From NCBI GenBank assembly GCA_044341565.1, contig JBIIRM010000008.1, positions 1-47,688 on the forward strand: a DNA stretch of 47,688 nucleotides. The letters run 5' to 3'. The notes under the pieces are model-generated. The model was given only the letters and a program-made list of their open reading frames with translations, was not told the origin of the DNA and did no database searches. The stretch's first letter is position 1. Every line of letters begins with the position of its first letter. Shown here one piece after another: positions 3,208 through 47,067 of the stretch. The position numbers and the translations under genes were made by a program. This DNA comes from Minisyncoccia bacterium. GTDB taxonomy: Bacteria; Patescibacteriota; Minisyncoccia; SW-4-49-11.

Positions 3208-3208
3208 T

Positions 3209-10410: not shown

Positions 10411-10435
10411 ATAATTCTATAAACAATTACTATAT

Positions 10436-11911: not shown

Positions 11912-14900
11912 ATGGGAGAATCATTTAGACAAATACCCGAAGATTATAGAGAGCCTAATGAACATGATAGAGGTTTAGAAAATGGTCAAGGACTTATAGA
12001 ATTTGTTTCTGCTTCAGTCAAAAAAAGGAATAGATTTAATAAGGAATTAGGGCCAGTCATTGGTATTACGGACACAGATAATTTGGCTAAATTAAGACGT
12101 AAACTTCAAGAAGAATTGACAATCCCACAGTTAAATGGTAATACATTAGATTTAGAAACAGTAAATTTTTTACGTAATCGTTATGGTTTTGATGCTTTAG
12201 GACAAGAAGAATATGAGGTACAGCAAAGCCAGACACAGGAAGTTGAAAATAGTGTTGAACAGTTAGCTCCAGAAGAAAAAATTAGTCTTAACTCCCTAAA
12301 TTCAGAACAAACTCAAATAGTAGAAGAGGAAACAGGAATAACTCCTGAAATACCAGCTGAGCAAGAATTGGTATCAGAAGTATTGTCACCCATACAGGAC
12401 CAACAAGATCAAATTACCCCTATTGCGGAAGAATCAATTCTTCAAAATCCTGAGCAAGTTGCTCCAAAAGAAGAATTGACTTCTGAAAATCCAGATGTAC
12501 AGGGAATGTTGGCTGAGGTCACAGCTATTGTAGAGGCGGAACAACAGGAGGAAGAAAAATTAGATGTACCTGAAGGAGGAGAAAATAAAGGAGAAGAGAC
12601 TGAAAGATTAACACAAGAAGCTCGTGAAACTATTGCTATATATCAAAAATTTGGACAAGAGCATCCTATTTTTACAAGAGATCAGGCAACGCAAGAGCGA
12701 TATCGTCAATTAGAAGCTGAAGCTTGGGGAGCTCAGAATAGACTTGCTCATATGAATGGGGGAGAAATTTTTGCTTTACCACAAAAAAGAGATATAGAAT
12801 TATCACATCCAGAAGCAAAAGACACAAAAGACTATCTGGAATCATTAGAATATGGATTTGATGAGAAGGGTAATATTATTACCATTAAACATCATAATAA
12901 AAATATAGAATTGAATCGACCTTATAGTGTGGCAAATTTGATAGATAAAGCTCGACCAGCACAAATACTTACTGATATTAATTTAGATAATATCGATACA
13001 GATCTACATCGTATAGGATATGTATTACCGGGTTTGAATCCCCAAACCCCAGACTTTATTGTGAGTACACTCAGCAAAGATGAATTTATACAAGGAGTGA
13101 TTGTTGATGATATTGTTCCCGAACAAGTAGTAACACCTGAAGCTAATCCAGAGATACAAGCTTCTAGTGTTTTATTTCCGCCCGAGCCAACGGCAGAACA
13201 ATTACCAATCACCCCAGTACCAGAAGTTAATCTTGAAGTAGAAAACTCTACGCTTGAAGTTGTGATAAGTCCAGAAATAGAACAAGCACCAATAAATCCA
13301 GATTTGGGAAGTTTATATTATCAAGAAATTCAATTATGGAATAATATTCAAGCATTAAAAGAGCGAAGAGAGCAAAAAGAAGCTAAAGAAGAAGATATTG
13401 ATACACAAATTGAAAAAGCCGAGTCAGATTATCAAAGTTTTATAAACACATTATGGGGAAGTGAATTGGGAAGACGTTTTGTCCAATTTCTTGATTTGCG
13501 TACAGAGAGTGCATATACTGAAGAGCAAAATAATAAATATGGTAGAGATAAAGGTTTATTAGAGAAAATTCGTGATAAATTCTCAAGAGAAGATGTATCA
13601 GATACAGAAGAATTAAGTCCTAAAGATCAGGAACTTAAGGCTAGAAATGAATATAATCAAGCTTTACAAGAATTAATTAGAACTGAATCAGCTATTGGAT
13701 TAGAATCAGAAATACAAACATTATTTGCAACTGAAGTACAGCGTTTGCGAGATGAAAGAATAGTACAATCTCAGGAATTACAAGAATGGGATCAAACAGG
13801 ACTTGAAAAAATAGCTAATTCAACTAAAGAAAAACTATTCAACTGGTATATTAAACATAAAAATACTATTGGTAAAGTTAATCTTGCATTATTTGCAACA
13901 AGTACAACACTAGCATTAACTGGAGCTGGACTACCTGTAGCAGGAGCATTAGAGGCTGTAAGGCGTACAATAGCATATCCTATGGCTTTTGCTTCTGGAG
14001 TATCAAGTAGAGAACTTATAAGGTCAAAATTTGAAGATGGGGATGTTAATATACTTAATATTATTAAATATAAAGGGGGAATTACTAAACTAGTAGGGGA
14101 GTCTCTACAAGGAAATTATATTCAGGAAGCTCAAGATACTGAACTTACTGCAAAACTTAGTACCCTGGAGTCTTATTATCGGCTTAATGGAGGTAAATTT
14201 ACTGAATTGTCTCAGCAAAAAGCTTATGAGTTGATATTAACTGAATTAGGGCAGAGAGTAGAAAATCAAAAAATTGATGATGTTAAACCAGATATAGAGC
14301 AACCTGAAGAGCAAGAGACTACAGCTAACACAGGATTAGATTATAATATTAATTTAAAAGATAATCCTATAGAACAAAATCCAAACTATGTTAATAGCTT
14401 ATTAGAGACAGTATCAGAAAAGCGTATTACAGAATTACAAAGACTACAAAGGAATAGAACTATTGCAAATGTAGCAGGAACAGTTGTAGCGGGATCACTA
14501 TTAGTCAATTTAGCGGCACATGCTATTAAACTTGATAAACCAGATATTGCAGATACTCCTGATAATCTGTCTGTTGGGACAAGTCCAGAGACTGCTACTC
14601 CAAATCCTACAGAAATATCTCCAGTTAAACCTGATATTCCATCTTCAGAAGGAGCTGAATCTATGAATGAGGTTGCAAAAGAAGCTACTCAGCAATTATC
14701 AACAGAACAATTACAAGATATCTCTGAATTAAGTAAGGGAGAGACTTTATGGGGAGAAATAGCTAAAAAATTAGGAGCGAATGCCAGTGAAGCCCAAATT
14801 CAACAAGGAGTAGAAACATATATGCAATCAACACAAGGTTCAGAAACTATATTTAATTTAGCAAATCAAACTGAGGGGGGAAGAGCTTTATTATCTCAAT

Positions 14901-15859
14901 GGGGGATTGATAATGCAGGAGAACTATCACAAGTATCAAAAACAGATTTATATGAATTATCTCGTCATCTAGGAGTAGGACAATTAAAGGGGTTAGATAC
15001 ATTAGATATTACTAATCTCCCTCCTCTTGATGAGGTATCAACTCCTACAGGATTAACTCCTCCTGAAAGTCCTAGTTCTGGAGTAACTCCTCCTGGACCT
15101 GGAGCCGAGTCTATTCCTCCAACTGATACTAATACTTTTGCTCGAGAAGTATCTCATACATTGCGTTTAGAGAATACCTCTCTCGATGATAATCAAGTTA
15201 AAGATATTTTGGAAGCATATCATTCCACTGAGCAGGGACGTAATTCTATGTATGAATTAATATTATCCGCTCCTGAAGGAGATACCTATTTATCTAATTT
15301 AGGTATTAAGACTATAGAAGATTTTTCAAATCTATCAGAGGATCAATTATATGAGCTTTCCCAGAGTATTGATTTAAACAAGCTTGAAGGATTTAATTTC
15401 AATAATATTATCTTATCTCGATTTGAAGATGCTCCAAACTCCATTCCATTGATAAAAGGAACCGGAGCTTTATCCCAAGTAAACCAGTATATTGATTTGT
15501 ATGCGGGAGCATTGCCATATAATTCTACTTTGGGACAAGAAGTATTAACTACATATTTGAATACCCCAGAAGGAAAAGATTGGCTATATGATGCTATTGT
15601 AAATAATCCAGATACATTAAATGGAAATCAAGGTATTCAAATTGCAAAAGAATATTTCCGACAAAAGGGTATACAACAGGGAACAGATATTGATTGGACA
15701 CTCTTAAGTGGAGATAAAAAAAATCCCACCTCAATTTTCTGGAGAGAGACCTCTTTGACAGGAGGAAGAAAAATCCCACCATTATCTACTCTTTTGAAAC
15801 CAGGTACAATGCCAGGTATCAAGAAAGCACTTGAGCAAGTATTAACATTAAAACAATAA
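11912..15859 (+). CDS. giant hypothetical protein (1315 aa), acidic coiled-coil rich with internal TM helices and repeated helical motifs
   Basis: The N-terminal 600 aa is Glu/Gln-rich low complexity. Hydrophobic segments occur at LALFATSTTLALTGAGLPVAGAL and IANVAGTVVAGSLLVNLAAHAI. A Pro/Thr-rich linker (PPLDEVSTPTGLTPPESPSSGVTPPGPG) is present. A motif xELSxxxxxLYELSxxLG recurs. No recognisable enzyme motif was found. Confidence 0.55.
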   Translation: MGESFRQIPEDYREPNEHDRGLENGQGLIEFVSASVKKRNRFNKELGPVIGITDTDNLAKLRRKLQEELTIPQLNGNTLDLETVNFLRNRYGFDALGQEEYEVQQSQTQEVENSVEQLAPEEKISLNSLNSEQTQIVEEETGITPEIPAEQELVSEVLSPIQDQQDQITPIAEESILQNPEQVAPKEELTSENPDVQGMLAEVTAIVEAEQQEEEKLDVPEGGENKGEETERLTQEARETIAIYQKFGQEHPIFTRDQATQERYRQLEAEAWGAQNRLAHMNGGEIFALPQKRDIELSHPEAKDTKDYLESLEYGFDEKGNIITIKHHNKNIELNRPYSVANLIDKARPAQILTDINLDNIDTDLHRIGYVLPGLNPQTPDFIVSTLSKDEFIQGVIVDDIVPEQVVTPEANPEIQASSVLFPPEPTAEQLPITPVPEVNLEVENSTLEVVISPEIEQAPINPDLGSLYYQEIQLWNNIQALKERREQKEAKEEDIDTQIEKAESDYQSFINTLWGSELGRRFVQFLDLRTESAYTEEQNNKYGRDKGLLEKIRDKFSREDVSDTEELSPKDQELKARNEYNQALQELIRTESAIGLESEIQTLFATEVQRLRDERIVQSQELQEWDQTGLEKIANSTKEKLFNWYIKHKNTIGKVNLALFATSTTLALTGAGLPVAGALEAVRRTIAYPMAFASGVSSRELIRSKFEDGDVNILNIIKYKGGITKLVGESLQGNYIQEAQDTELTAKLSTLESYYRLNGGKFTELSQQKAYELILTELGQRVENQKIDDVKPDIEQPEEQETTANTGLDYNINLKDNPIEQNPNYVNSLLETVSEKRITELQRLQRNRTIANVAGTVVAGSLLVNLAAHAIKLDKPDIADTPDNLSVGTSPETATPNPTEISPVKPDIPSSEGAESMNEVAKEATQQLSTEQLQDISELSKGETLWGEIAKKLGANASEAQIQQGVETYMQSTQGSETIFNLANQTEGGRALLSQWGIDNAGELSQVSKTDLYELSRHLGVGQLKGLDTLDITNLPPLDEVSTPTGLTPPESPSSGVTPPGPGAESIPPTDTNTFAREVSHTLRLENTSLDDNQVKDILEAYHSTEQGRNSMYELILSAPEGDTYLSNLGIKTIEDFSNLSEDQLYELSQSIDLNKLEGFNFNNIILSRFEDAPNSIPLIKGTGALSQVNQYIDLYAGALPYNSTLGQEVLTTYLNTPEGKDWLYDAIVNNPDTLNGNQGIQIAKEYFRQKGIQQGTDIDWTLLSGDKKNPTSIFWRETSLTGGRKIPPLSTLLKPGTMPGIKKALEQVLTLKQ

Positions 15860-15860
15860 T

Positions 15861-16277
15861 ATGGCAAATCCAGAAGACAATATTATCGCATTATTAGGAC
15901 TAGAAGATTTACCTGTTGAGAATAGAGCTCAATTAGTGGATGAATTAACCCAAATTCTTGAAGTTCGTGTACTCAGTGCCGCTTATGATACATTGAGTGA
16001 AGATCAGGCAAAACATTTAGATACACTACTTAATGAGAATAATCCAGAAGTAGTCACTACCTATATTCAAGAAAATGTTCCAACTCTTAGTGATATATTT
16101 GCCAATCAAATAGAAGTATTAAAAGAGGAATTAGTACAACATAAAGAGAAAATCACCAAGAATTTGACACAAGAATTAGAACTTGAGCATAATCACGATG
16201 AAGATGATGGACATACTCATGAACATGGAGAAGATCATATTCACACAGAATCAGGTGACGAAAATCCTACAGAATAA
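15861..16277 (+). CDS. small acidic hypothetical protein with His/Asp/Glu-rich C-terminal tail
   Basis: The ATG overlaps the stop of the giant gene (ATAATATGG). The C-terminus reads EHNHDEDDGHTHEHGEDHIHTESGDE, a potential metal-binding tail. Confidence 0.4.
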   Translation: MANPEDNIIALLGLEDLPVENRAQLVDELTQILEVRVLSAAYDTLSEDQAKHLDTLLNENNPEVVTTYIQENVPTLSDIFANQIEVLKEELVQHKEKITKNLTQELELEHNHDEDDGHTHEHGEDHIHTESGDENPTE

Positions 16278-22060: not shown

Positions 22061-23542
22061 ATGAGTAAATCATTTTTTGTTACCACACCAATTTATTATC
22101 TGAATGGGGAACCTCATCTCGGGCATTATTATGCAACCACTATTGCTGATGTATTAGCACGCTATAATCGTAAATTTGGAGAGGGGGCTTTTTTCTTAAC
22201 TGGAACCGATGAACATGGACAAAAAGTAGCCGAAGCAGCAAACAAAGATAATATAACTCCCCAAGAATATACCGATAAATTATCTGCTATTTGGGAAGGA
22301 GTTTGGAAAGATTTGGATATTAGCTATGATTATTTTATTCGCACCACTAATCCTACTCATAAGGCTTTATGTCAATTTGTTATTCAAACATTATTAGAAA
22401 CTGATGATATATACCCACAAGAATATGAGGCATTATATTGTGTAGGAGCTGAGTCTTTTGTCACTCAATCTGAATTGAGAGTGGGGGGATTATGTCCTGA
22501 TCATGATGAGAAGCCACAAATTGTATTAGAAAAGAATTACTTTTTCCGATTAAATAAGTATAAGGATAGAGTTTTACAGCTTATAGATGATGGTAAGATT
22601 AATATTGTACCAGAATCTCGACGCAATGAGGCAATTGAGCTATTGAAAAATCCAGAAGTGGGAGATTTTTCGGTAACCCGAGAAAAAGTAAGCTGGGGTA
22701 TACCAGTGCCATTTGATACTAGTCAAACATTATATGTTTGGATTGATGCTTTATTTAATTATATGTCTGGAATATTGGCGAGTCAAAATATAGATATTAA
22801 GGATTTATCTATAGGAGAGATTTTAGCTAAAATTGGAGATATTTGGCCACCAGATTTGCATATTATTGGTAAGGATATTTTGAAATTCCATGCAGTATAT
22901 TGGCCAGCCTTCCTTTTGGCCTTCGGAATACCAGAAGAGAATTTACCGAAGACAATTCTCATCACAGGATTTTTCCTCTCTGATGGGCGTAAAATGAGTA
23001 AAAGTATTGGAAATGTAATAGTTCCTCAAGATATTATTACATATTTTGATGAGATAACGGATGGACTTGGGAATGATATTTTGAGATATGTGATCCTGAG
23101 AGAAATGCGAATTGGGAATGATGGAGATATTACCAAGGAGAAAATTATTGGAATTTATCAATCGGAACTTGTCAATAAATTTGGCAATACTTTTAGTCGT
23201 GTAATTGGAATGGCAAAGAAATATGACGTGCAAGTACAGCCTGAATCAAGTGCAGTCTTTCAAGATTATCATAATGCTTTTCAAAAATATGATATTTATG
23301 GTACAATACATAGTATATTTGAGCAGATCAATATCATTGGTCAAGAAATAGAGTCTCATAAACCCTGGGAATTATATAAAGAGGGAAAAACTGAGGAATT
23401 ATTTACTCTTATGCAGAATTGGCTAAAGTCTCTTCATCAAATTACAGAGATAATTGAACCAATAATGCCATCAACCGCAAATTTGATGAAGAAGCTACTT
23501 GCAGGAGAGAGTATTCACATATTCCCACGCATAGAAAAGTAA
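22061..23542 (+). CDS. metG: methionyl-tRNA synthetase (short form without C-terminal tRNA-binding domain)
   Basis: The class I motifs HLGH (PHLGHYY) and KMSKS are both present. The protein is 493 aa. Confidence 0.9.
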   Translation: MSKSFFVTTPIYYLNGEPHLGHYYATTIADVLARYNRKFGEGAFFLTGTDEHGQKVAEAANKDNITPQEYTDKLSAIWEGVWKDLDISYDYFIRTTNPTHKALCQFVIQTLLETDDIYPQEYEALYCVGAESFVTQSELRVGGLCPDHDEKPQIVLEKNYFFRLNKYKDRVLQLIDDGKINIVPESRRNEAIELLKNPEVGDFSVTREKVSWGIPVPFDTSQTLYVWIDALFNYMSGILASQNIDIKDLSIGEILAKIGDIWPPDLHIIGKDILKFHAVYWPAFLLAFGIPEENLPKTILITGFFLSDGRKMSKSIGNVIVPQDIITYFDEITDGLGNDILRYVILREMRIGNDGDITKEKIIGIYQSELVNKFGNTFSRVIGMAKKYDVQVQPESSAVFQDYHNAFQKYDIYGTIHSIFEQINIIGQEIESHKPWELYKEGKTEELFTLMQNWLKSLHQITEIIEPIMPSTANLMKKLLAGESIHIFPRIEK

Positions 23543-23547
23543 AAAGT

Positions 23548-24528
23548 ATGAATTGGTTTCGAAGACAAACAGTAATATTCAAAATAGGGATAATCATTAT
23601 CTTGATTTTGGGATGTATTGTATTACTGAGAGGAGGTAATATTAAAAAAATAGAAGTTGCTCAGACAGGGACATATACTTATACGGGTGCTACTAATTAT
23701 ACTAATACATGTACAGGTGGTTTTGTGTGTACCAATATTGCTTATAATGATATTAATAATAAACCAGTTAATGTGGTTGTTTTTTCGGATAAACTAACTA
23801 CTCCTTCCCCAGTAGATTTAGTTGATGTTTTAGTGGTATATCATGGAACAGTGGATACCAATGATAAAATTGAAGGGGCTGCAAAACAAACTTTGGCACA
23901 GTTTAAAAATATATTAAGTTCCCAAAATAAAGATATGCTTATAATAAGTGTTGCTTACCCTGAAGGGGATTTATTAATGGGGGATAATGTTACAGCTTCA
24001 TTAGCTGCATTAGATTGGGCTTTGGATAAAACTGGAGTTAATGGTGCTAGTAAAACATTAGGGGTGAATATTAATAAGGTATTTATTGCTGGACACTCGC
24101 AAGGTGGATATACTGTGGTTCGTTTGAATAGTCTTAGAGAAACAGCAGGAGTAATTGCAAATGCACCCGGACCTATTGATTTAGTATATCGATGTGGTCT
24201 TGATGAGGCTACTAAAAATGGGAAGTCTAGTAAGACTTGTGTCAATTTATATAATGAGTATGGTTCGGTATCTACTAATCCCAATCCATACAAAGATAGA
24301 TCTCTCTCTGGTTTTACTAATAATTTTAAATCTGATATATTATTGAATCAAGGAATGCAAGATGATGAAATTCAGATTTATCTTTGGCCAGGATTCAAAC
24401 AACAGGTGAAAGATTGCACAACCTGTAAAGAGACAAAATTTGTAGAAGTGCAGGGAAAACACGCATCATTATTCGTCAATCCTATTTCAATACAAGAGTT
24501 TAATACATTTATATCTACTCGTAGATAA
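23548..24528 (+). CDS. secreted alpha/beta-hydrolase-fold esterase/lipase-like protein
   Basis: An N-terminal signal-anchor (IGIIIILILGCIVLL) is followed by the nucleophile elbow GHSQGG. Several Cys pairs are present. Confidence 0.5.
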   Translation: MNWFRRQTVIFKIGIIIILILGCIVLLRGGNIKKIEVAQTGTYTYTGATNYTNTCTGGFVCTNIAYNDINNKPVNVVVFSDKLTTPSPVDLVDVLVVYHGTVDTNDKIEGAAKQTLAQFKNILSSQNKDMLIISVAYPEGDLLMGDNVTASLAALDWALDKTGVNGASKTLGVNINKVFIAGHSQGGYTVVRLNSLRETAGVIANAPGPIDLVYRCGLDEATKNGKSSKTCVNLYNEYGSVSTNPNPYKDRSLSGFTNNFKSDILLNQGMQDDEIQIYLWPGFKQQVKDCTTCKETKFVEVQGKHASLFVNPISIQEFNTFISTRR

Positions 24529-24803
24529 TTACTATCTTGATTTTAGTATATATTACTCTCAGTAATATATACTAAAAGAACAGAAGCTCCTTTTGTTCCA
24601 TATAATGGGGGTACATGAGAGGGATTCTCAATAGAAGAACCTATTAATTATTGGGTAAAAAGGAATCGAACGACTCAAATACCAATAATTACTAATTTCC
24701 CTGATATTAATAAAAAAGATAAAAGTATATATATAGATGGTGTGTGAGGTATGGAATTTCTTAAAAAATAAATCGAAGTAAAAGGCTTCTCATCTCATAC
24801 AAC

Positions 24804-29453: not shown

Positions 29454-29516
29454 AAATAGTTGACGATTTATAGGAATAACTATATACTAGATACAGGTAT
29501 AAAATAAAATCTCATT

Positions 29517-30059
29517 ATGTTAGAAACCACTACTCGATTTCTATCACCTCGTGAAATAGTACAGCAATTTGATTTAGAAGTTGGTATGAAAATTGCTGAT
29601 TTTGGATCAGGGGCAGGAGATTTTTCTATTGCCATTGCTCAATATATTCAGCCTACAGGGAAAGTCTTTGCAATTGATGTGATGGAATCAGCTCATCAAT
29701 CTCTTAGAAGTAAATATAAAATTCAAGGAATTACGAATATTGAACTGATTTTGACTAATCTAGAGACTGAAACAGGTTCTACTTTACCAAAAGAATCAGT
29801 AGATAGAGTAATGATACATAATATTTTATTTCAAGTAAATGATAAAAAACATTTGCTCAAAGAAGCTCATAAAATCTTAAAAGATAAAGGAAAATTAGTT
29901 GTAATAGAATGGGATATTTCAAGTCCAATAGGACCTCTTAAATCATCAAGAATTCCAGAGAGAGAATTAGTGTCCCTGATACAGAATAATGGTTTTGAAA
30001 TTGATCATAAAATTGACTCAGGAAAATACCATTATGGATATATATTTAATAAATCATAA
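29517..30059 (+). CDS. class I SAM-dependent methyltransferase
   Basis: The SAM-binding motif I is present as IADFGSGAGDFS. The protein is small (180 aa) with a Methyltransf_11/25-like layout. Confidence 0.6.
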   Translation: MLETTTRFLSPREIVQQFDLEVGMKIADFGSGAGDFSIAIAQYIQPTGKVFAIDVMESAHQSLRSKYKIQGITNIELILTNLETETGSTLPKESVDRVMIHNILFQVNDKKHLLKEAHKILKDKGKLVVIEWDISSPIGPLKSSRIPERELVSLIQNNGFEIDHKIDSGKYHYGYIFNKS

Positions 30060-30061
30060 AT

Positions 30062-31408
30062 ATGGCAGGGAATAATTCTCTTGATTCATTTACCAAAAAT
30101 CGCAACGTAATTATTATTGCTGGTGTCGCTATATTAGCTATTGTTATATTGATGCTTGGTAATGCGCTTGGATTCAAAATTGGAGGTGAGAAAAAAGTAC
30201 AAAAAGCAAATTTGGTAGTATGGGGAGTCTGGGATGAAAGTGAGACAATGACGAAATTGGGAAGTGATTTTCGTAAAATATATCCTAATGTAAGTATAGA
30301 ATATCGTAAATTCAAGCCACAAGATTATGAGACAGAACTTATTAATGCTTTAGCTGAGGGACGAGGTCCAGATATATTGGCAATGGAGAGAACTTGGCTT
30401 GGTAAACATAAGAATAAGTTAGCCCCAATGCCAGAAGAAATTATGACACTCAAAGAGTATCAAGATACTTTTGTAGATGTGGTTAATCAAGATTTTATTG
30501 ATGAGGGTAAAATATATGGATTCTCTCTATACACCGATACTTTAGCATTATTATATAACAAAGATGCTTTTAATGATGCTGGAATTGCAAATCCACCAGT
30601 AACTTGGGAAGAATTACAAAGTATAGTACCCAAATTAACTAAAATAGATCAATTTGGTGAGATTAAACAGGCGGGAGTTGCATTAGGTACAGGAGATAAT
30701 ATAAATCGTTCACCAGATGTTTTGATGGCATTAATGTTACAGTCTGGAGCTCAATTTACTGACCCTAAAGATACTAGTAGAATTACTTTTTCTCAAAGTA
30801 AAAATGTCAATGGACAAAATATAAATCCTGCTCAATTATCTTTAGCTTATTATACCGATTTTGCTAATCCTCGAAAAGGAGTATATACCTGGAATTCAAC
30901 CTTAAATAATTCAATAGATGCTTTTTATGAAAGAGAAGTTGCTATGATATTTGGATATTCATATCAGGTAGAAGCAATTAAAGCAAAAGCCCCAAGACTT
31001 AATTTTGCAGTAGCTCCTCTCCCTCAGGTATCTACAGATTCTGGCCTTGCTAATTTTGCAAATTATTGGGGATATGGAGTAAGTGGTCAATCTAAATACC
31101 CAAAAGAAGCCTTTGCATTCCTCAAATCAGCCACTGAAAAGGAAAATGCTCAAGAGTATTTCTTGAAAACCAAGCGCCCAACAGCCAGAAGAGATTTAGT
31201 AGATACACAATCACAAGACATTGATTATGGAGTATTTGTAAAACAAATATTACAAGCTAAAACCTGGAGACAACCCGATAATAATTCAGTAGATAAAATA
31301 TTTATCAATGCTATTAATGGAGTAAATTCAGGATTACTTGACTATAGTAAAGCTATTTCGCAAGCTCAAACAGAAATACAGACATTAGCTGATAATGTGA
31401 AAAAATGA
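30062..31408 (+). CDS. extracellular solute-binding protein (family 1, sugar-type), membrane-anchored by N-terminal TM helix
   Basis: The TM anchor IIIAGVAILAIVILML is followed by a MalE-like SBP_bac_1 pattern (VVWGVWDESE...PDILAMER...). No permease or ATPase gene lies adjacent. Confidence 0.55.
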   Translation: MAGNNSLDSFTKNRNVIIIAGVAILAIVILMLGNALGFKIGGEKKVQKANLVVWGVWDESETMTKLGSDFRKIYPNVSIEYRKFKPQDYETELINALAEGRGPDILAMERTWLGKHKNKLAPMPEEIMTLKEYQDTFVDVVNQDFIDEGKIYGFSLYTDTLALLYNKDAFNDAGIANPPVTWEELQSIVPKLTKIDQFGEIKQAGVALGTGDNINRSPDVLMALMLQSGAQFTDPKDTSRITFSQSKNVNGQNINPAQLSLAYYTDFANPRKGVYTWNSTLNNSIDAFYEREVAMIFGYSYQVEAIKAKAPRLNFAVAPLPQVSTDSGLANFANYWGYGVSGQSKYPKEAFAFLKSATEKENAQEYFLKTKRPTARRDLVDTQSQDIDYGVFVKQILQAKTWRQPDNNSVDKIFINAINGVNSGLLDYSKAISQAQTEIQTLADNVKK

Positions 31409-32730
31409 AATATATAAAGTTCAGTATAGTTTTTGGTATAATATTCTTAGTAGTTTCATTTTTTAGTATTAACTATACTAATGCACAGAGTGCAGATGGA
31501 GCTTGTAGTGCAGGGGCAACATCATTAGAGCAAAACTGTACTTTTCAAAATGGAAGCTCTCGTTTAAATGGAAAATGCCAGGTTAAAGATAAAAATAATC
31601 CAGGTTTAGGATTAACTTGTCGTACTAGCTTAGGATCATCCTGCTCAGGTGATACTTGTCAAAATGGATTAGCCTGTATTAATCAGGTTTGTTCCAGTCC
31701 AAGAGGGGCTAAAACTCAAGGTCAATCTTGTTCAGGGAATGGAAATGAATGTATTGCAGGTCTTGAATGTAGAAATTTTATATGTACAAAAGAAGCTGCC
31801 ATTACTGGTGGAGGGTCTGGGCAAACTGGAGGTGGTCAAGTCGGTACCCCTGGAGGCTCAACAGGGGCAGAAACAGGCCTTGTTAAATGTGGAGTGAGTC
31901 GAGATTGTACTATTTGTGATATATTTATCTTAATTCGAGATATCTTTAATTTTGCTTTAGGGCTACTAGCCTCACTCGCGGTATTAAGTGTTGTTATTGG
32001 TGGGGTCTATGTGTTGACTTCAGCAGGTAATCCTGGAGCGGTAAGTACAGGATATGGCATTATTACCAATGCAGTAATTGGACTATTACTCGTAATGGCA
32101 AGCTTTCTCTTATTTAGTTTCCTTCTTGTGGGGCTTGGATTTCAAGAACAAAATTTCTCAGCTGTACTTACTTTTCAACCAGGTAAAGTATTCGAGGTAA
32201 AATGTGATAATGCTAGTACTTTTAATGATAATGGATCAAATGGAGGAGGGTCTGCTGTACTGGGTAATGGTGGGAGTAACTCATCAACTATAAGTTGTGC
32301 GAGTTTAAATGATTCGGTTAAGGCGGATTTAAATAATGCTAGTTCTCAGACGGGTGTTCCTTCTGAACTATTGGCTGGAATTATGCAAAGAGAATGTCCT
32401 GCAGCCTTTAATAATGCTAATGCTTGTCCAAATGAAAATGGCTCTGGAGCAGCTGGAGCAGGTCAATTTTTACAAAGTAGCTGGAATGAGCTGGGATGTA
32501 GTGGAAGTAGAACGAATCGAAGAGATGCCCTTGTTTGTATGGGGAAACATTTAAAACGGTATAATAAATGTTCTAGTCAATGTAATGGATATTCTAATTT
32601 TTCATCCAGAGCTTGTTCTGATTGTGTGGCAGGAGATTATTGTGGTGCATGTTCAGGTTCATCAGCTTGTGGAGGTAATTATTGTGATGGGGTGTGGAGT
32701 AACTATCAAAAATTTAAAACATGTAAATAA
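31405..32730 (+). CDS. Cys-rich secreted protein, VirB2/TrbC-like two-helix segment, C-terminal lytic transglycosylase (SLT/VirB1-like) domain
   Basis: A signal peptide is followed by repeated C-x-C modules (CSGDTCQNGLACINQVCSS; CSGNGNECIAGLECRNFIC). The hydrophobic hairpin ALGLLASLAVLSVVIGGVYVLTSAGNPGAVSTGYGIITNAVIGLLLVMASFLLF is homologous to the downstream pilin paralogs. The C-terminus LLAGIMQRE...SGAAGAGQFLQSSW resembles SLT motifs (catalytic E, then GAxGLMQ). Confidence 0.5.
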   Translation: MKYIKFSIVFGIIFLVVSFFSINYTNAQSADGACSAGATSLEQNCTFQNGSSRLNGKCQVKDKNNPGLGLTCRTSLGSSCSGDTCQNGLACINQVCSSPRGAKTQGQSCSGNGNECIAGLECRNFICTKEAAITGGGSGQTGGGQVGTPGGSTGAETGLVKCGVSRDCTICDIFILIRDIFNFALGLLASLAVLSVVIGGVYVLTSAGNPGAVSTGYGIITNAVIGLLLVMASFLLFSFLLVGLGFQEQNFSAVLTFQPGKVFEVKCDNASTFNDNGSNGGGSAVLGNGGSNSSTISCASLNDSVKADLNNASSQTGVPSELLAGIMQRECPAAFNNANACPNENGSGAAGAGQFLQSSWNELGCSGSRTNRRDALVCMGKHLKRYNKCSSQCNGYSNFSSRACSDCVAGDYCGACSGSSACGGNYCDGVWSNYQKFKTCK

Positions 32731-32734
32731 TAAT

Positions 32735-33841
32735 ATGAATAAAATCTTCAGTCTATTTTTACTAATAGCATCTTTCTATTCTATTTCTCCAGTATATGCA
32801 GATACTAGTATATACTCAAGTTTCTTATATCCAAGTTTTGCTGTAAATAATGAAATTTTATATTTTGATCAATATGCAGGAGCTATTGTGAAACAAAATG
32901 TTATTACTGGTGAGAAGTCAGAGATATTTGATTTAATACCTTCTGCTACTAACTTAGTATCAATTTCTCCTGAACAATCTAAAATATTACTTTATCCTCC
33001 TAATATATCATTTCCAAAATATCAAGCACCATTTTTTGATAGTTCAAGAAAATCTCCCGATAATCAATGGTGGGTATATGATTTTAATACAACAAATAAA
33101 ATACTACTAGATGATAAAATTAATTTAGTTGGCTGGTATTCTGATAATGAAATTATATATGTATTTAATAATAAAGATATCACAGTTGCCCCAACCAATG
33201 ACCTATCTAAATTTAATATTCTATACTCTAATATACCATCTAATGTGGATATTAATAAACAAATTATAGCAAATGATAACCATCAAATAATTCCATTAGT
33301 TGATGGTTATCTTGTGGGAAATAAGAAAAACTTTGTATATCAAAAAAGTACTAATTATCAAATTTCAGCCAATCCAAAATTGAATTATTTTTTGGAATAT
33401 AATAATAGTCAGATAAAAGTTTTTGATTGGGATAGTAAGCAAGTAGGTAGTATTATTAATATCAGTAACAGGAAAGCTTTGTTACTGAATAATGATACTA
33501 TAGCTATATTGGCTACAAATGGTAATTTGATACAATATAATTTACAAGGGCAGGAGCAATCAAATGTATCATTAAATCCAATAGTTACTGATATATATTC
33601 GGTTGATCAATCTGGAAATGAACTATTAATTAATCAAAATAATCAAATACGTACTTATAATTTATTAAAAAAAGAGCAGGGAACCATCCTATTATCCACC
33701 AATACTCCTACTCCTAATACTGACACAAATTCAGAGACAGAACAATCCAACACATTAGGGAATATTGCTATTTTAATAGGAGGAATAGTATTCCTTGCTG
33801 GGGGACTGGGGCTATTTATTTGGAAATTAAGAAAAAGATGA
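32735..33841 (+). CDS. secreted protein with C-terminal TM anchor, hypothetical
   Basis: The track ORF starts at 32585. The Met at 32735 gives a clean signal peptide (MNKIFSLFLLIASFYSISPVYA) directly after the upstream stop. The body is Asn/Ile-rich and probably beta-rich. The C-terminal anchor is IAILIGGIVFLAGGLGLFIWKLRKR. Confidence 0.45.
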   Translation: MNKIFSLFLLIASFYSISPVYADTSIYSSFLYPSFAVNNEILYFDQYAGAIVKQNVITGEKSEIFDLIPSATNLVSISPEQSKILLYPPNISFPKYQAPFFDSSRKSPDNQWWVYDFNTTNKILLDDKINLVGWYSDNEIIYVFNNKDITVAPTNDLSKFNILYSNIPSNVDINKQIIANDNHQIIPLVDGYLVGNKKNFVYQKSTNYQISANPKLNYFLEYNNSQIKVFDWDSKQVGSIINISNRKALLLNNDTIAILATNGNLIQYNLQGQEQSNVSLNPIVTDIYSVDQSGNELLINQNNQIRTYNLLKKEQGTILLSTNTPTPNTDTNSETEQSNTLGNIAILIGGIVFLAGGLGLFIWKLRKR

Positions 33842-33871
33842 TATAATTAAAAATAATTAAATACAGATACT

Positions 33872-34711
33872 ATGAAATTAATCATATCTACAGCATTTGG
33901 AATTGTCTTTGCACTAGTATTCTTTAGTAATTCTAATATAACACTTGCTCAATGTGGAAGTGGTCCAAGCTGTACAGGGAATTTTGTTTGTGTGAACGCA
34001 GATGGTACTCCTAAATGTTTGCTAAATCAGGTTAGTAATAATGGTTTATGTGAGGGCGACTCTTCTGTGAAATGTTCAGCAAATCAAGCTTGTATTCAAA
34101 ATAATGCAACAGAAATTGTATGTGCCCCTTTAGCGGGATCATCAGCTAATACAAATTTACCAGGTTCTGGAAGTACAACAACTTGTCCAACCTGTAAATC
34201 TGGTGAAACATGTATTAAGAGTGCAGCAGGACCACTCGTATGTAGATCCGCCGCTACAAATTGTACTCCTGCTTGTACAACAGGTAAGGTGTGTGTTAAA
34301 GCAACGCCAACAGCAACTACTGGAACTTGTGTAGATAATGCGCCTACTCAAGCTGCTGGAGGAGCTGGTGGTAATGGTGCTGGAGGGAATGGATCTTCAG
34401 GAGGAAGTGGTGGTGGCTTATTAGAAGGTCTCAATGCTTTTGGTAGTGCAGATTCTGGACTTAATACAGAGGGAACTCTCATTGGGTTTATTTCTAATAT
34501 TATTCGTTGGATATTAGGACTTCTTGGAACTGTGTTCTTTGTAATCATAGTTTTACAAGGGTATCTTTATATGACATCTTCAGGAGATGCGAGTAAAACA
34601 GCAGCAGCTACGGGGGCTATTACTAATGCAGTAATAGGACTACTGATTATTATGGGAGCTTTCCTCATTACTAATTTTGTGACAAGTGGTTTGATTGCCG
34701 CTGGGTCTTAA
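33872..34711 (+). CDS. Cys-rich and Gly-rich secreted protein with C-terminal VirB2/TrbC-like pilin domain
   Basis: A signal peptide is followed by four roughly 25-aa Cys modules (CGSGPSCTGNFVCVN...; CPTCKSGETCIKS...) and a linker GGAGGNGAGGNGSSGGSGGG. The C-terminus is ...IRWILGLLGTVFFVIIVLQGYLYMTSSGDASK...NAVIGLLIIMGAFLITNFV. Confidence 0.5.
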   Translation: MKLIISTAFGIVFALVFFSNSNITLAQCGSGPSCTGNFVCVNADGTPKCLLNQVSNNGLCEGDSSVKCSANQACIQNNATEIVCAPLAGSSANTNLPGSGSTTTCPTCKSGETCIKSAAGPLVCRSAATNCTPACTTGKVCVKATPTATTGTCVDNAPTQAAGGAGGNGAGGNGSSGGSGGGLLEGLNAFGSADSGLNTEGTLIGFISNIIRWILGLLGTVFFVIIVLQGYLYMTSSGDASKTAAATGAITNAVIGLLIIMGAFLITNFVTSGLIAAGS

Positions 34712-34721
34712 TATCTTATAT

Positions 34722-35069
34722 ATGATAGAAGCATTTATATCCAATTTCATCATAGTAACAGCTAAAGCCCAGGAGACATCGCCTCCTCCTATATTAGCTA
34801 TACCTACAGGAACAGGAGTGGGGGAGCAAGGAGATCTGTTTACTTTTGTGTCAGCTATTGTGCAATGGGGATTGGGATTAATAGGGATAGTATTATTTGT
34901 ACTTATACTCTTTTCTGGATTCCAATATGCAACAGCAGGGGGCGACTCTAAAAAAACTGAAGAAGCTATTAGTAGAATTACTTCTGCAGTAATCGGAGTA
35001 TTCATTGTAGGGGTGGCTTTTATACTATCCAATGCAGTATTAGGATTTGTTTTTAGTCTAGGATCTTAA
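34722..35069 (+). CDS. VirB2/TrbC-like pilin family protein
   Basis: The core reads VQWGLGLIGIVLFVLILFSGFQYATAGGDSKKTEEAISRITSAVIGVFIVGVAFILSNAV. The track ORF starts at 34695, overlapping the upstream gene. Confidence 0.5.
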   Translation: MIEAFISNFIIVTAKAQETSPPPILAIPTGTGVGEQGDLFTFVSAIVQWGLGLIGIVLFVLILFSGFQYATAGGDSKKTEEAISRITSAVIGVFIVGVAFILSNAVLGFVFSLGS

Positions 35070-35169
35070 TATACTGACTTATCCACAATAGTATCACTTG
35101 CATAGTAATATAAGATATGATAGTATAAAAACATAGAACATATTATTCAATAATTATTAAGATATTCTT

Positions 35170-35553
35170 ATGAATACTTCCCAGATAAAATCAATAGCAA
35201 CAAGAGCATTATTACCTGTATTAGTATTAGCTCCTACTTTAGCTGGAGCTGCAACTCCCATAAAAGATACTAGAGTCATAGGTGAAATACCTCAAGTAGC
35301 TGGTACTAATCAATCTACTGACCTTGTGGCTACAGTACAAGTGGTTATTCAATGGGCATTAGGATTTATCGGAATTGTAATATTCATTATTTTCTTATTT
35401 GCAGGATTTGAATATGCAACAGCAGGAGGAGATGAAGGAAAAGCAAAAACTGCACAGTCTCGAATGATTAACGCGGTAATTGGACTTATTATTATATTCT
35501 TTGCCTTTGTAGCTTCAAATGCAATATTGTCATTCGTATTCCCAGGAAATTAA
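35170..35553 (+). CDS. VirB2/TrbC-like pilin family protein
   Basis: A signal peptide is followed by the core IQWALGFIGIVIFIIFLFAGFEYATAGGDEGKAKTAQSRMINAVIGLIIIFFAFVASNAIL, two TM helices separated by a short loop. Confidence 0.55.
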   Translation: MNTSQIKSIATRALLPVLVLAPTLAGAATPIKDTRVIGEIPQVAGTNQSTDLVATVQVVIQWALGFIGIVIFIIFLFAGFEYATAGGDEGKAKTAQSRMINAVIGLIIIFFAFVASNAILSFVFPGN

Positions 35554-35580
35554 TCAAATTGATAGATACTATGAAACAAT

Positions 35581-35606
35581 AAAAAGGGATTATATCCCTT
35601 TTTATT
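35581..35606 (+). terminator. rho-independent terminator-like hairpin
   Basis: The sequence aaaaaggga-ttata-tcccttttt is followed by a T run, 28 nt after the upstream stop. Confidence 0.5.
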
Positions 35607-35697
35607 GTTTAGAGAATACATATTCAAATAGTATAATCTTCTTGTCAGATAATAGAATACTTGATATACTTGTAATATATAGAATAGTAAAATAGAT

Positions 35698-36114
35698 ATG
35701 AGAGTCTTATTGATTATAATAGCTTTATTGATGGGGGTATTTGTATTAAGTTCTAATATATCTCTAGCTCAAAGAGCCCCTGATGCCACTCTCCCTGGTC
35801 CAGGAACAATCCCAATTAATACCGGAATAGCTGAGGGACCAAGCTTGATAGAAACAGTGTCTATTATTATAAGGTGGATATTAGGATTTATTGGAATTAT
35901 AATATTTATTATATTCCTATATGCAGGATTTGAATATGCAACAGCAGGAGGGGATGAGAAGCAGGCTGAATCAGCTCAAAAAAGAATGGTAAATGCAATC
36001 ATAGGACTGATTATTATATTCTTTGCATTTGTATTGTCGAATGCAGTATTAAGCTTTGTATTTCCTCCAGACGATACAGTAGATGATCCTAATATGCCAT
36101 TAAATGTAAATTAG
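35698..36114 (+). CDS. VirB2/TrbC-like pilin family protein
   Basis: A signal peptide is followed by IRWILGFIGIIIFIIFLYAGFEYATAGGDEKQAESAQKRMVNAIIGLIIIFFAFVLSNAVL. The motif is near-identical to that of the 35170 gene. Confidence 0.55.
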   Translation: MRVLLIIIALLMGVFVLSSNISLAQRAPDATLPGPGTIPINTGIAEGPSLIETVSIIIRWILGFIGIIIFIIFLYAGFEYATAGGDEKQAESAQKRMVNAIIGLIIIFFAFVLSNAVLSFVFPPDDTVDDPNMPLNVN

Positions 36115-36115
36115 T

Positions 36116-36556
36116 ATGAAATATCTATCAATAGTAATAATTGCAATAATGATACTAATGAGTAATCCTTTTATTAGCTTTGCAGGTACCCCATCAGGGG
36201 GAGGAACTACTCCAGCTACGGGTGGTACTCCATCAGGGGGAGGAACTACTCCAGCTACGGGTGGTACTCCCACAACCCCAACTGACAATACTTCTGCTCA
36301 AAGTGTAGGATTTGTGAATCCAATTCGATTTAATTCTATCCCTGAGCTTATAGCAGGTATTATCAATGCTCTCTTGGGTATACTCGGAGCTATTACTGTG
36401 GCAATATTAGTGATGTCAGGATTTAAATATATGACAGCTTCTAATCCAGGAGCAGTAGGGCAAGCTTTAGATGGTATTAGGAATGCAATTGTAGGACTTA
36501 TGATTATTATGGGGGCTTTTCTCATCACACAATATATTATATCTGCTTTGGTGTAA
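36116..36556 (+). CDS. VirB2/TrbC-like pilin family protein with Pro/Thr/Gly-rich tandem-repeat N-region
   Basis: A signal peptide is followed by (TPSGGGTTPATGG)x2 and then the core LIAGIINALLGILGAITVAILVMSGFKYMTASNPGAVGQALDGIRNAIVGLMIIMGAFLIT. Its start is 1 nt after the upstream stop. Confidence 0.5.
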   Translation: MKYLSIVIIAIMILMSNPFISFAGTPSGGGTTPATGGTPSGGGTTPATGGTPTTPTDNTSAQSVGFVNPIRFNSIPELIAGIINALLGILGAITVAILVMSGFKYMTASNPGAVGQALDGIRNAIVGLMIIMGAFLITQYIISALV

Positions 36557-36612: not shown

Positions 36613-37323
36613 TCAGCGAGCTTGTATCACTGGGTATCCAGATTGCCCACCTGGCATCTTCTGGTAATATTCATAATCATTATTAACATCTGCTCCGATA
36701 TTAAATTTCCTTTTAATATCGGGAGTATATTGTTTACCAAATACTCCTAGGGATATTTTGATCCTTTTCCCAGAAAGTGATGAAGGTAAATCGTGGCATT
36801 TAGCGTAAGGCTCAATAACCCTCCAATTGTCACCAATGGTAACCTCTTGATTTATCCAGTGTTTCTCTGGATGGCCAGTCTGTTTGAAGCAGACCTTGAG
36901 AGGTCGTGCTGGGAGATCATACTCACCATCACGATTGATCACGATGGGAGTCATTTCCCCGGGGGGATTGAGTTGTGCCTGCCTTGCACTATGTATGCTC
37001 TGGTTGAAGTTAGCTGAGCAATAGTTCAAGAGGAGAATTACTCCAATCACAGTAGCAGCAAACCTGAGCTTGCTATTGAGTACCGCTGCAATTATAGTAA
37101 TGGCCATCAAAAAGAATATCTCACCATCAGAAATACTTCCTCCGATGAGAATCATTTTGGCCCCCAACCAAAGACCAGCCAAACTAATCAGTAAAACTGA
37201 CCAGTTCAGTCCGCGAGCTTTACTCCACAAATTCCCAGAACTTGCCGGAGATGGGGAGGAGTTTGTGGATGATGAGGTGTTTGAGCCTCTAGATCCACGG
37301 GACCCGTATTGACGATTTGTCAT
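36613..37323 (-). CDS. hypothetical membrane protein (Ser/Arg-rich N-terminus, 3 TM helices, C-terminal soluble domain)
   Basis: The ORF has markedly higher GC (about 45%) than its surroundings. The N-terminus is MTNRQYGSRGSRGSNTSSSTNSS. The TM segments include VLLISLAGLWLGAKMILIGG. Confidence 0.5.
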   Translation of the reverse strand: MTNRQYGSRGSRGSNTSSSTNSSPSPASSGNLWSKARGLNWSVLLISLAGLWLGAKMILIGGSISDGEIFFLMAITIIAAVLNSKLRFAATVIGVILLLNYCSANFNQSIHSARQAQLNPPGEMTPIVINRDGEYDLPARPLKVCFKQTGHPEKHWINQEVTIGDNWRVIEPYAKCHDLPSSLSGKRIKISLGVFGKQYTPDIKRKFNIGADVNNDYEYYQKMPGGQSGYPVIQAR

Positions 37324-37434: not shown

Positions 37435-38460
37435 TCAGTCTTTGGAAGCTTCGAGAGCTCCCAGGACTTGATTTGCTATATCTTGCCCTTTACCCCCTCC
37501 ATGGAAAATAACTTTGGCATTGGTACCAAGAGTTTTTTCCAAAATAGGATATTGGGCGAGTTTAGCAAAAAGCTGTTGCTCTGAGATATCAGAGCCCATT
37601 GCTCCAGCTTTAATTGCAGCTGTGAATCCTTTGGTTTCAGCCAATAGATTCTCATTCTGTTGCTTAATAACCAGACCACGGGCTGTCTCGCGATCGAGAT
37701 CAGCTTTTTGCTCAGCTTTTGCTATGGCAGATTTATTCTTGGCATCATTGACCTCGGACGGTAACTCTAAATCATCTATATTTATTGCAGATAGCTCAAT
37801 ACCAATATTATCTAGTTTCTTCAGAATGGTCTTACCAAGAGCAAGAGCTTCAATATCCTCTGTAGTATCCATACCCTTAATACGAGATCCATCTTGCTCC
37901 AGACCAAGAGCTTGAAGTAATTGATCAGGAGTCATTGTAGATATTTGAATATCCTGAACCTCTTTACCCGCAGCTATATGCTTGGAGTATTCTTGATAGG
38001 TATGTTGTTGCAGTACTAGACGAATATAAGGGTTCAAGATGCGTTCAGTTGCCTGACGTTCATCCTGATCCTCTGCATTATAGTGCAAGTTATAAACATG
38101 CTTTATTTTTTCCTGCAGAGTATTTCCTTTAATTTGAGCAATTACGCTAACTCTTGCTTCTAGAGTAACATCAGCCAATTCTAATTTGGCAAAGTCATCA
38201 GTACTAGGAGCATCAGATCTATCCTGAGGGGCTACTTTTCTAGGCCCGTCATGTCTAAAAAGATAGACAGGAAACTGGTTGGTTTCATACCATCCAGCTA
38301 ATTTTGATCCCGGTACAATCAGATGAGGTCCCGGAGTAGCAATTTTGGAAAGAATTCCACTCCCATTATGATTTGGACGGCTTCCTAACCATGAAATCAC
38401 ATGAACTTCATCATCAGGTACAATCCAGATAGGGGGGATAAAGAAAGAATCAAAGGCCAT
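37435..38460 (-). CDS. SPFH/band-7 (flotillin-like) domain protein, tentative
   Basis: The C-terminal half is Ala/Glu/Lys-rich helical (AKAEQKADLDRETARGLVIKQQNENLLAE). The protein ends in a KVIFHGGGKG-type motif like flotillin/YqiK. GC is elevated at about 45%. Confidence 0.35.
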   Translation of the reverse strand: MAFDSFFIPPIWIVPDDEVHVISWLGSRPNHNGSGILSKIATPGPHLIVPGSKLAGWYETNQFPVYLFRHDGPRKVAPQDRSDAPSTDDFAKLELADVTLEARVSVIAQIKGNTLQEKIKHVYNLHYNAEDQDERQATERILNPYIRLVLQQHTYQEYSKHIAAGKEVQDIQISTMTPDQLLQALGLEQDGSRIKGMDTTEDIEALALGKTILKKLDNIGIELSAINIDDLELPSEVNDAKNKSAIAKAEQKADLDRETARGLVIKQQNENLLAETKGFTAAIKAGAMGSDISEQQLFAKLAQYPILEKTLGTNAKVIFHGGGKGQDIANQVLGALEASKD

Positions 38461-46974: not shown

Positions 46975-47060
46975 GGAGAGTTCGCATAGTTGGTCTAGTG
47001 CGCACGCTTGGAAAGCGTGTATACCGCAAGGTATCAAGAGTTCGAATCTCTTACTCTCCG
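46975..47060 (+). tRNA. tRNA-Ser (anticodon GGA), class II with long variable arm
   Basis: The acceptor stem pairs GGAGAGT with ACTCTCC. The anticodon stem-loop is CACGC-TTGGAAA-GCGTG, giving anticodon GGA. The long variable arm is TATACCGCAAGGTAT. The T-arm is CAAGAGTTCGAATCTCTTA. CCA is not encoded. Confidence 0.8.
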
Positions 47061-47067
47061 CAAAAAT

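Follow-up and report, generated by a model that had tools for sequence, protein, structure and literature searches.

Organization of the Locus

The locus considered here lies on a 47,688-bp contig (JBIIRM010000008.1) of the Minisyncoccia bacterium assembly GCA_044341565.1; this whole contig is the window, and negative results given for the window cover this one contig of the genome. Its forward strand carries a tandem array of six genes related to type IV secretion system (T4SS) pilins, one unrelated surface protein gene and, at the head, the gene of an extracellular solute-binding protein (SBP). A previous annotation from the letters alone (the sequence-only reading) had proposed six consecutive same-strand pilin genes, and these are recovered where it had placed them, as plus-strand open reading frames (ORFs) at 31405–32730 (gene 1), 33872–34711 (gene 2), 34722–35069 (gene 3), 35170–35553 (gene 4), 35698–36114 (gene 5) and 36116–36556 (gene 6). 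Its placement of the start of the unit at 31405 is not borne out, as the SBP gene (30062–31408) overlaps gene 1 by 4 nt (ATGA) and is a conserved partner.

A hidden Markov model built from the six pilin cores matches exactly six ORFs within the 47.7-kb window, and core identity between the paralogs is 19–74%. Genes 3, 4 and 5 encode short pilins of 115, 127 and 138 amino acids (aa), gene 4 being the most conserved member of the array. Genes 2 and 6 encode N-terminally decorated pilins: the 279-aa product of gene 2 consists of a signal peptide, four 4-Cys modules, a Gly-rich linker and the core (aa 203–275), and the 146-aa product of gene 6 of a signal peptide, a Pro/Thr/Gly tandem repeat and the core (aa 72–146). 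The claim that all six proteins end in the homologous core holds for genes 2–6 but not for gene 1, the lead pilin (441 aa), in which a signal peptide, three Cys-rich modules and a Gly-rich linker precede a core at aa 171–244 (nt 31915–32136), with a conserved linker and a lysozyme/lytic-transglycosylase-like domain beyond it.

The two-helix topology ascribed to these proteins is supported by the hydropathy scan, which finds a signal-like N-terminus and two strongly hydrophobic helices in each of them. The start of gene 3 is uncertain (ATG at 34722 or TTG at 34695), and with the ATG start its signal-like N-terminus is weak. In the AlphaFold2 model of gene 5 (predicted local distance difference test, pLDDT, 75), a signal helix (residues 2–18) is followed by a helical hairpin (50–81/87–121), and the hairpin of gene 1 is modelled at 167–205/210–243. 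The loop motifs are also as first described, reading GFEYATAGGD in genes 4 and 5, GFQYATAGGD in gene 3, GYLYMTSSGD in gene 2, GFKYMTASNPG in gene 6 and VYVLTSAGNPG in gene 1. Regarding the N-terminal decorations, the tandem repeat of gene 6 spans 36185–36270 (period 39 nt, 2.2 copies, 97% matches), and the four modules of gene 2 are 20–25-aa units with the spacing C-x2-7-C-x5-C-x8-11-C, both in line with the earlier description. Gene 1 has 30 cysteines and gene 2 has 16, the other four pilins having none.

Between genes 1 and 2 lies the gene of a 368-aa non-pilin surface protein (32735–33841, plus strand). It had been described as secreted and C-terminally anchored, which agrees with its signal-peptide-like N-terminus, its ectodomain followed by a Thr/Pro/Asn linker, and its C-terminal transmembrane (TM) helix with KLRKR after it. 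The homologue search gave only 15 lineage-specific relatives, none with a Pfam domain, and the ectodomain matches no recognised family.

Family Assignment of the Pilins

The initial assignment of the six proteins to T4SS pilins of the VirB2/TrbC type is right at the level of the family. All six match the T4SS pilin family PF18895 (T4SS_pilin, gathering score 26.6 bits), with 26.3, 37.9, 41.9, 35.9, 39.8 and 39.5 bits for genes 1–6, respectively; five are above the gathering score and gene 1 is just under it, a PF18895 match being recorded on most of its close homologues. The TrbC/VirB2 family proper (PF04956, gathering score 27.9 bits) is not reached by any window protein, the best match being that of gene 5 (E 0.34 for the full protein, 0.043 for the core, below threshold). 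Among 47 related cores, PF04956 is the second commonest Pfam match (18/47, weak, best E 4.6e-5), and one pilin of an equivalent array (L074:7378–8337) passes it at 35.4 bits. Such matches point to a link between the array pilins and classical VirB2 that is indirect. Five of the six pilins also match NCBIfam NF045849, a pilin-like conjugal transfer protein of Mycoplasma integrative and conjugative elements, over about 70 residues, below or at threshold (gene 5, with 40.6 bits, reaches the cut-off of 40). The pilin family is very large: 37,466 cluster representatives are retrieved at E ≤ 0.001 by a profile made from gene 5 together with its homologues.

Assignment of the core to holins or immunity proteins had been named as an outcome that would overturn a pilin interpretation, and no profile made it. 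In PHROGs, genes 2–6 match nothing and gene 1 gives only a transglycosylase match, outside the core. Weak matches of the cores to TctB, DctQ and AA_permease were treated as probably compositional.

Two further observations concern the architecture of the PF18895 family. Many of its cluster representatives hold 2–10 copies of the core per predicted protein (P0193, P0194, P0198, P0208, P0264, P0289), for example 6 copies in 552 aa and 10 copies in 966 aa; they are either genuine poly-pilin fusions or products of gene calling with the wrong genetic code, which would have joined the genes of an array into one. In loci of Uhrbacteria, Falkowbacteria and Magasanikibacteria type, the core sits at about aa 50–150 of paired proteins of 585–891 aa and 1,742–3,089 aa (L020, for example L020:9815–19084, and L022, L024, L026, L027, L028, L031 and L040). 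Because the core stands at the N-terminus of these 585–3,089-aa proteins, the pilin hairpin is also an N-terminal module of giant surface proteins.

A Lysozyme-like Domain on the Lead Pilin

The C-terminal domain of gene 1 extends over approximately aa 295–441 (nt 32287–32727). SLT_2 matches the whole protein at E 0.084 and the C-terminal part alone at E 0.0097, and the PHROG "transglycosylase" match covers aa 302–363 (E 1.8e-4). The structural model has a mean pLDDT of 65–88 over the blocks of residues 301–380. When this domain is compared with the PDB by Foldseek, all of the top 50 structures (50/50) belong to the lysozyme superfamily, nearly all of them lytic transglycosylases or lysozymes (Slt, MltE, MltC, MltF, g-type and invertebrate lysozymes, together with one chitinase), with probabilities mostly of 0.9–1.0 and a few of 0.72–0.89. 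Judged from the model, the domain has a lysozyme-like fold. A PDB profile search with the same domain gave no match, its alignment being shallow (effective number of sequences, Neff, 1.4). A conserved Glu in IMQRECP, with AGQF some 20 aa later, resembles the E-S...GLMQ motifs of family-1 lytic transglycosylases; from the alignment, we take this residue to be the putative catalytic Glu.

The core and the linker SAVLTFQPGKVFEVKCDNASTFNDNG are common to 57 homologues of gene 1, and beyond the linker at least five unrelated-looking sequence types of C-terminal domain occur. There, two of the homologues (P0011 and P0047) have an unambiguous SLT_3 plus SLT domain that passes the threshold, and another type is labelled "muramidase (phage lysozyme)" by JGI. 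A predicted VirB1-like activity appears to be fused to the lead pilin in this clade. Among loci selected by their SBP, C-terminal extensions of at least 100 aa are present in 17/68 lead pilins versus 3/123 later pilins; the extension of the lead pilin in locus L100 gives a weak NlpC/P60 match.

As a separate observation, an alignment of 20 lead-pilin homologues shows no variation at three gene 1 cysteines just ahead of the first core helix (aa 162, 168 and 171) and at one just behind the second (aa 267). These residues may be linked in a disulfide clamp over the outer ends of the hairpin, in which case gene 1 would pack unlike the short pilins.

The Solute-Binding Protein at the Array Head

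The gene at 30062–31408 (plus strand) encodes a membrane-anchored family-1 (sugar-type) extracellular SBP, as indicated by its matches to Pfam SBP_bac_1 (100.9 bits, threshold 26) and SBP_bac_8 (92.6 bits). Its 463 PDB relatives are led by maltose- and sugar-binding proteins, the closest being maltose/oligosaccharide-binding proteins. An identical −4 overlap with the first pilin gene is found in every related Paceibacteria locus whose record spans the SBP–pilin junction.

The association was examined on 80 metagenome loci chosen by SBP similarity alone (37–76% identity), 70 of which extend at least 500 nt past the SBP stop. A same-strand pilin-core ORF lies downstream of the SBP in 70/70, starting within 300 nt in 68. 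The loci hold 1–9 pilin-core ORFs each, with none upstream and none on the opposite strand, and all downstream ORFs tested by Pfam (10/10) match PF18895, five with scores that reach or exceed the gathering score. In four distant loci of Patescibacteria that were selected by pilin match alone, the sole SBP-like ORF lies directly upstream of the first pilin. The gene directly upstream of the SBP varies by lineage (across the 80 loci, a methyltransferase in 44, the Mg-chelatase-like competence protein ComM in 25 and a nucleotidyl transferase in 9), so the SBP–pilin pair is kept in different contexts. The SBP is a conserved head partner of the array. No ATP-binding cassette (ABC) permease or ATPase gene is present among the window ORFs scanned, and none stands beside the SBP; the conserved neighbours in the 80 loci are pilins, methyltransferase, ComM and others, with no permeases.

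Variation between Close Relatives

Two syntenic relatives, L003 (from GCA_964585065.1) and L004 (from GCA_943354045.1), carry the same six pilins between the same flanking genes. Their flanking proteins are 90–100% identical to those of the window (GyrA 98–99%, S12 99–100%, EF-G 99%), and the pilin cores are 84–100% identical; the core of gene 3 is 100% identical to that of L003, and the core of gene 4 is 100% identical in both relatives. The cross-genome comparison called for by the sequence-only reading shows a copy number of six throughout the related Paceibacteria loci whose record spans the full array, together with outward-facing modules that differ. In L003, the C-terminal domain of gene 1 is swapped for another, and the ectodomain of the interleaved protein is replaced (227 aa versus 368 aa here) with an identical C-terminal anchor. 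Gene 2 encodes four Cys modules in the window but only two, in a protein of 215 aa, in relatives, and the Pro/Thr repeat of gene 6 takes the place of a Cys-rich N-domain of 100–150 aa in relatives (251–296 aa).

The ratio of nonsynonymous to synonymous substitution rates (dN/dS) is 0.04–0.11 in most cores versus 0.26–0.66 in the outward-facing parts, and on these ratios the cores are judged to be under purifying selection. Between the window and L003, the synonymous rate dS ranges from 0.02 to 1.0 along the array; such a span between the same two genomes points to a recombination mosaic. The suggestion of a variable surface repertoire for host contact, which has also been proposed in the literature (PMC12102498), fits this module swapping between close relatives.

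Proposed Working

Collectively, these findings lead us to favour the reading of the array as a chromosomal operon of Paceibacteria (Parcubacteria, Patescibacteria), in which an SBP is followed by six PF18895 pilin paralogs and one unrelated surface protein; a probability of roughly 0.55 is given to this reading jointly with the working outlined here. Each pilin would be exported by Sec, with its signal peptide cut after an A-x-A-like site, and the mature protein would form a helical hairpin in the membrane, both ends facing outward and the conserved G-G-D/N...K/R loop lying in the cytoplasm. The short and conserved products of genes 3–5 would be the bulk subunits of a surface filament or conduit, extracted and assembled by a VirB4-type machine encoded elsewhere, as other lineages suggest. 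Genes 1, 2 and 6 would provide minor subunits displaying outward-facing modules: the lytic-transglycosylase-like domain of gene 1 may open peptidoglycan, either in the cell's own wall for passage or in that of the host, and genes 2 and 6 may carry adhesive Cys-rich or Pro/Thr-rich modules. The SBP, presumably coupled translationally to gene 1, would bind a saccharide, possibly a cell-wall or host-surface glycan, and would either target the apparatus or capture what it releases. Recombination between strains would exchange the outward-facing modules and thereby tune host specificity.

Several results weigh against this reading. As the sequence-only reading had noted, no VirB4, VirB6 or VirD4 is found in the window, which reaches 31 kb upstream and 11 kb downstream of the array. 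Those syntenic Paceibacteria loci whose record reaches 10 kb from the array have none over that distance either, and no VirB4-like ORF lies within 6 kb in any of the 80 SBP-headed loci, so that dependence on a T4SS is an assumption. Neither profile search nor fold search retrieves a solved VirB2/TraA pilin from the PDB, and hhalign against mature Agrobacterium VirB2 (query sequence checked against PDB entries 8cue and 8exh) gives a probability of 5.7%. The enzyme domain of gene 1 is below threshold by sequence (SLT_2, 15.6 bits against 24.3), the Foldseek E-values for it are 0.014–0.3 (best 0.014), and hhalign of this domain against the SLT_3-type domain of the homologues gives no match, with shallow alignments (Neff 1.4). 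Moreover, the hairpin of gene 1 is flanked by a bulky domain on either side; this arrangement and the occurrence of the core in proteins of 585–711 aa and 1,742–3,089 aa both fit an anchor better than a packed pilus subunit. Finally, no pilus has been seen in any Patescibacterium in the literature examined.

In other lineages the same core does occur near an assembly ATPase: VirB4-like ATPases (P-loop_TraG, AAA_10, CagE_TrbE_VirB) lie 6–8 kb from such arrays in the Saccharimonadales/SR1 loci L029, L030 and L033, all three of which are without an SBP. Since just 6–10 kb of flank is covered, a VirB4 may be encoded elsewhere. A published survey places pilin genes near virB4 in 1,135 of 1,948 assemblies and far from it in about 800 of the 1,948 that have one (PMC12102498). 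The FtsK of the window (3164–5365) was considered as a coupling protein and ruled out: it has the alpha and gamma domains of the chromosomal translocase and is therefore a housekeeping protein.

Alternative Readings

The alternative that survives best, possible although on balance unlikely, is that the two-helix core mainly anchors and oligomerises. It would hold enzymes and adhesins at the surface with no extended pilus, and the short paralogs would assemble into a small oligomer in the membrane and thereby organise the decorated paralogs. The fusion of the core to a C-terminal muramidase-like domain in gene 1 and to an NlpC/P60-like domain in L100 is what such an anchor would look like, as is its N-terminal position in the 585–3,089-aa proteins of the Uhrbacteria, Falkowbacteria and Magasanikibacteria-type loci; the position-specific distribution of C-terminal extensions (lead versus later pilins) and the fact that Gram-positive-type T4SSs are normally without a pilus (PMC12102498) point the same way. 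However, genes 3–5 are free of cargo, their mature form being about 25 aa plus the hairpin, and yet conservation within the array is highest in them. Throughout the 37,466 cluster representatives the cytoplasmic loop motif is retained, which suggests more than anchoring, and in other lineages the arrays adjoin VirB4 and are essential.

More doubtful is a T4SS-independent module for saccharide capture or uptake, in which fragments of the host wall, freed by the hydrolase, would be bound by the SBP, with the hairpin oligomer as scaffold or conduit. The strict order of SBP and then pilin, kept in 70/70 loci despite differing upstream neighbours, is well accommodated by such a module, and so are the lack of VirB4 in the SBP-selected loci, the lack of an SBP in the three VirB4-linked arrays, and a maltose/oligosaccharide-type SBP with no ABC permease or ATPase beside it. 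On the other hand, a two-helix hairpin acting as an SBP-dependent transporter is without precedent, the transporter-like TctB/DctQ matches of the cores are probably compositional, and a VirB4 may lie beyond the 6–10 kb of flank covered, as in the roughly 800 assemblies with pilins far from virB4 (PMC12102498). It is very improbable that the array is a lysis or bacteriocin/immunity cassette of phage origin, made up of two-helix proteins of holin type and an endolysin: small two-TM proteins do stand next to a muramidase-like domain with a PHROG "transglycosylase" match, but the cores have no PHROG match, no phage genes are nearby, the housekeeping neighbourhood is conserved in the related species examined, and every member matches a T4SS pilin family and begins with a cleavable signal-like stretch. 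The holin/phage and immunity readings were rejected on the PHROGs and Pfam scans.

A more far-reaching proposal, offered tentatively and as rather unlikely at present, is that SBP-headed PF18895 arrays are a distinct and widespread surface module of Patescibacteria, separate from the VirB4-linked arrays. SBP, pilin-anchored hydrolase and hairpins would act jointly to break through a host cell wall and to capture the pieces. The hydrolase would stand in as the "missing VirB1" of these lineages, host range would be determined by the recombining ectodomains, and the whole might even work without a T4SS ATPase.

Neighbouring Genes and Other Features of the Window

The window is chromosomal, with a low GC content (32–40%), and carries the housekeeping genes for FtsK, enolase, RecJ, PriA, MetRS, GatB and GyrA, the rpsL-rpsG-fusA group, the RNase P RNA (bacterial class A, 10089–10414, 140 bits) and one tRNA (tRNA-Ser(GGA), 46975–47061). 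The neighbourhood of the array consists of housekeeping genes and is conserved in the related species examined. Rfam and tRNA scans find no element inside or adjoining the pilin array.

Upstream of the SBP, a gene for a 180-aa S-adenosylmethionine-dependent methyltransferase (29517–30059, plus strand) stops 2 nt ahead of the SBP gene; it is an ORF call whose family assignment was made on the 94–96% identical L003 and L004 orthologues and on a homologue. This gene may be the first of the operon, and a promoter-like site (29460–29488, a consensus match only) lies upstream of it. On the other side, two minus-strand genes (36613–37323 and 37435–38460) converge on the array and encode an SPFH/Band_7 protein and a 236-aa protein with three TM helices. 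Their position is kept in relatives, with identities of just 23–61% and 33–40% versus 90–100% for the flanking housekeeping genes; because this pair is so much more diverged than those flanks, the hypervariable zone reaches beyond the pilins.

Further from the array, a 326-aa ORF with a weak Peptidase_S9 match (23548–24528) lies in a 1.26-kb segment (approximately 23542–24801) which is read as a strain-specific insertion because it is missing from the otherwise collinear L003 and L004. The 691-aa protein encoded at 696–2771 has the N-terminal methylation motif of type IV pilins and, in addition, Laminin_G_3 and fibronectin-III domains; by its domain content it looks like an adhesin borne on a type IV pilus, a pilus system distinct from the array. 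A 1,315-aa ORF (11912–15859) has no Pfam or NCBIfam match and is directly followed by a DUF5663 protein (15861–16277).

Significance and Comparison with Known Systems

A large part of bacterial diversity belongs to the Patescibacteria, whose way of life is attachment to other microbes; how they attach to and feed on these hosts is largely unknown. Pilin arrays are essential in the one species of the group tested, and the locus described here offers three starting points for tests. The sugar-binding partner is strictly conserved and can be screened for its ligand, the putative pilin-anchored hydrolase may explain the apparent lack of VirB1 in most such genomes, and the modules swapped between near-identical genomes form a natural series to be correlated with host range. 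If SBP-headed arrays prove to be independent of VirB4, the "T4SS pilin" label of a family with more than 37,000 sequence clusters will need revising.

The class of pilin array to which this one belongs is already known and was described between 2020 and 2025. McLean et al. (2020) reported arrays of 4–6 genes for small Sec-signal proteins beside VirB4/B6/B2 in Saccharibacteria (PMC7427843), and Wang et al. (2023) found a series of six pilins inside a T4SS cluster to be essential in Southlakia epibionticum (PMC10633639). Using PF18895, Quinonero-Coronel et al. (2025) counted 441 arrays of 2–11 pilin genes each in 383 assemblies, and VirB1 homologues were lacking in most genomes with VirB2 (PMC12102498). 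A 2025 review describes six VirB2-like pilins, conserved in structure and divergent in sequence, inside the T4SS cluster, and regards a pilus as no more than possible (PMC12857230). In cultures of Paceibacterales, T4SS pilins rank among the highest-expressed genes of unknown function (PMC10936435), and the function of the Patescibacteria T4SS-type pilin arrays has been termed "completely unknown" (PMC11665869). The SBP partner, the hydrolase-fused lead pilin, the Cys-rich or Pro/Thr-rich ectodomains and the module swapping were not found in the main texts of the papers searched for them.

Compared with the known Patescibacteria arrays (S. epibionticum ML1 SEML1_0006–0019 and the "Sec-secreted array" of N. 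lyticus TM7x; PMC10633639, PMC7427843, PMC12102498), the present array shares the PF18895 family, tandem same-strand paralogs (six, as in both of these species), an interleaved non-pilin gene, a chromosomal position with no relaxase nearby, and low identity between paralogs (19–74% for the present cores, the published values being 25% on average and 54% at most). Unlike them, it is neither inside nor beside a VirB4/VirB6/VirB3 cluster, it is led by an SBP in putative translational coupling with a lead pilin that carries a lysozyme-like fusion, and two of its members have Cys-rich or Pro/Thr-rich N-terminal ectodomains.

With the classical VirB2/TrbC/TraA pilins (Agrobacterium T-pilus, RP4 TrbC, F TraA; PF04956), the array pilins have in common a long signal peptide, a small mature protein, two hydrophobic helices and a short charged loop; the host of the array, however, is a monoderm. 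The classical pilins are not known to carry enzyme or Cys-rich domains. The tandem virB2 paralogs of Bartonella and Anaplasma phagocytophilum (cited in PMC12102498) are similar in being diverged tandem copies for which surface variation and a broader host range have been proposed, but they belong to classical VirB operons of Gram-negative intracellular pathogens and vary by point divergence, with no domain swapping.

The hydrolases VirB1, PrgK and TraG (pIP501) likewise associate a lytic-transglycosylase or lysozyme-like domain with T4SS-type genes, for a presumed local opening of the wall, and the weak NlpC/P60-like match in L100 is a further similarity; in those systems the enzyme is a separate protein or has its own TM anchor, whereas here the hydrolase-like domain lies on the C-terminal side of a pilin core. 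The Mbov_0395 family (NF045849), which five of the six window pilins match and whose cut-off gene 5 reaches, is encoded by single genes on mobile elements of wall-less bacteria, unlike the chromosomal, decorated six-gene array described here.

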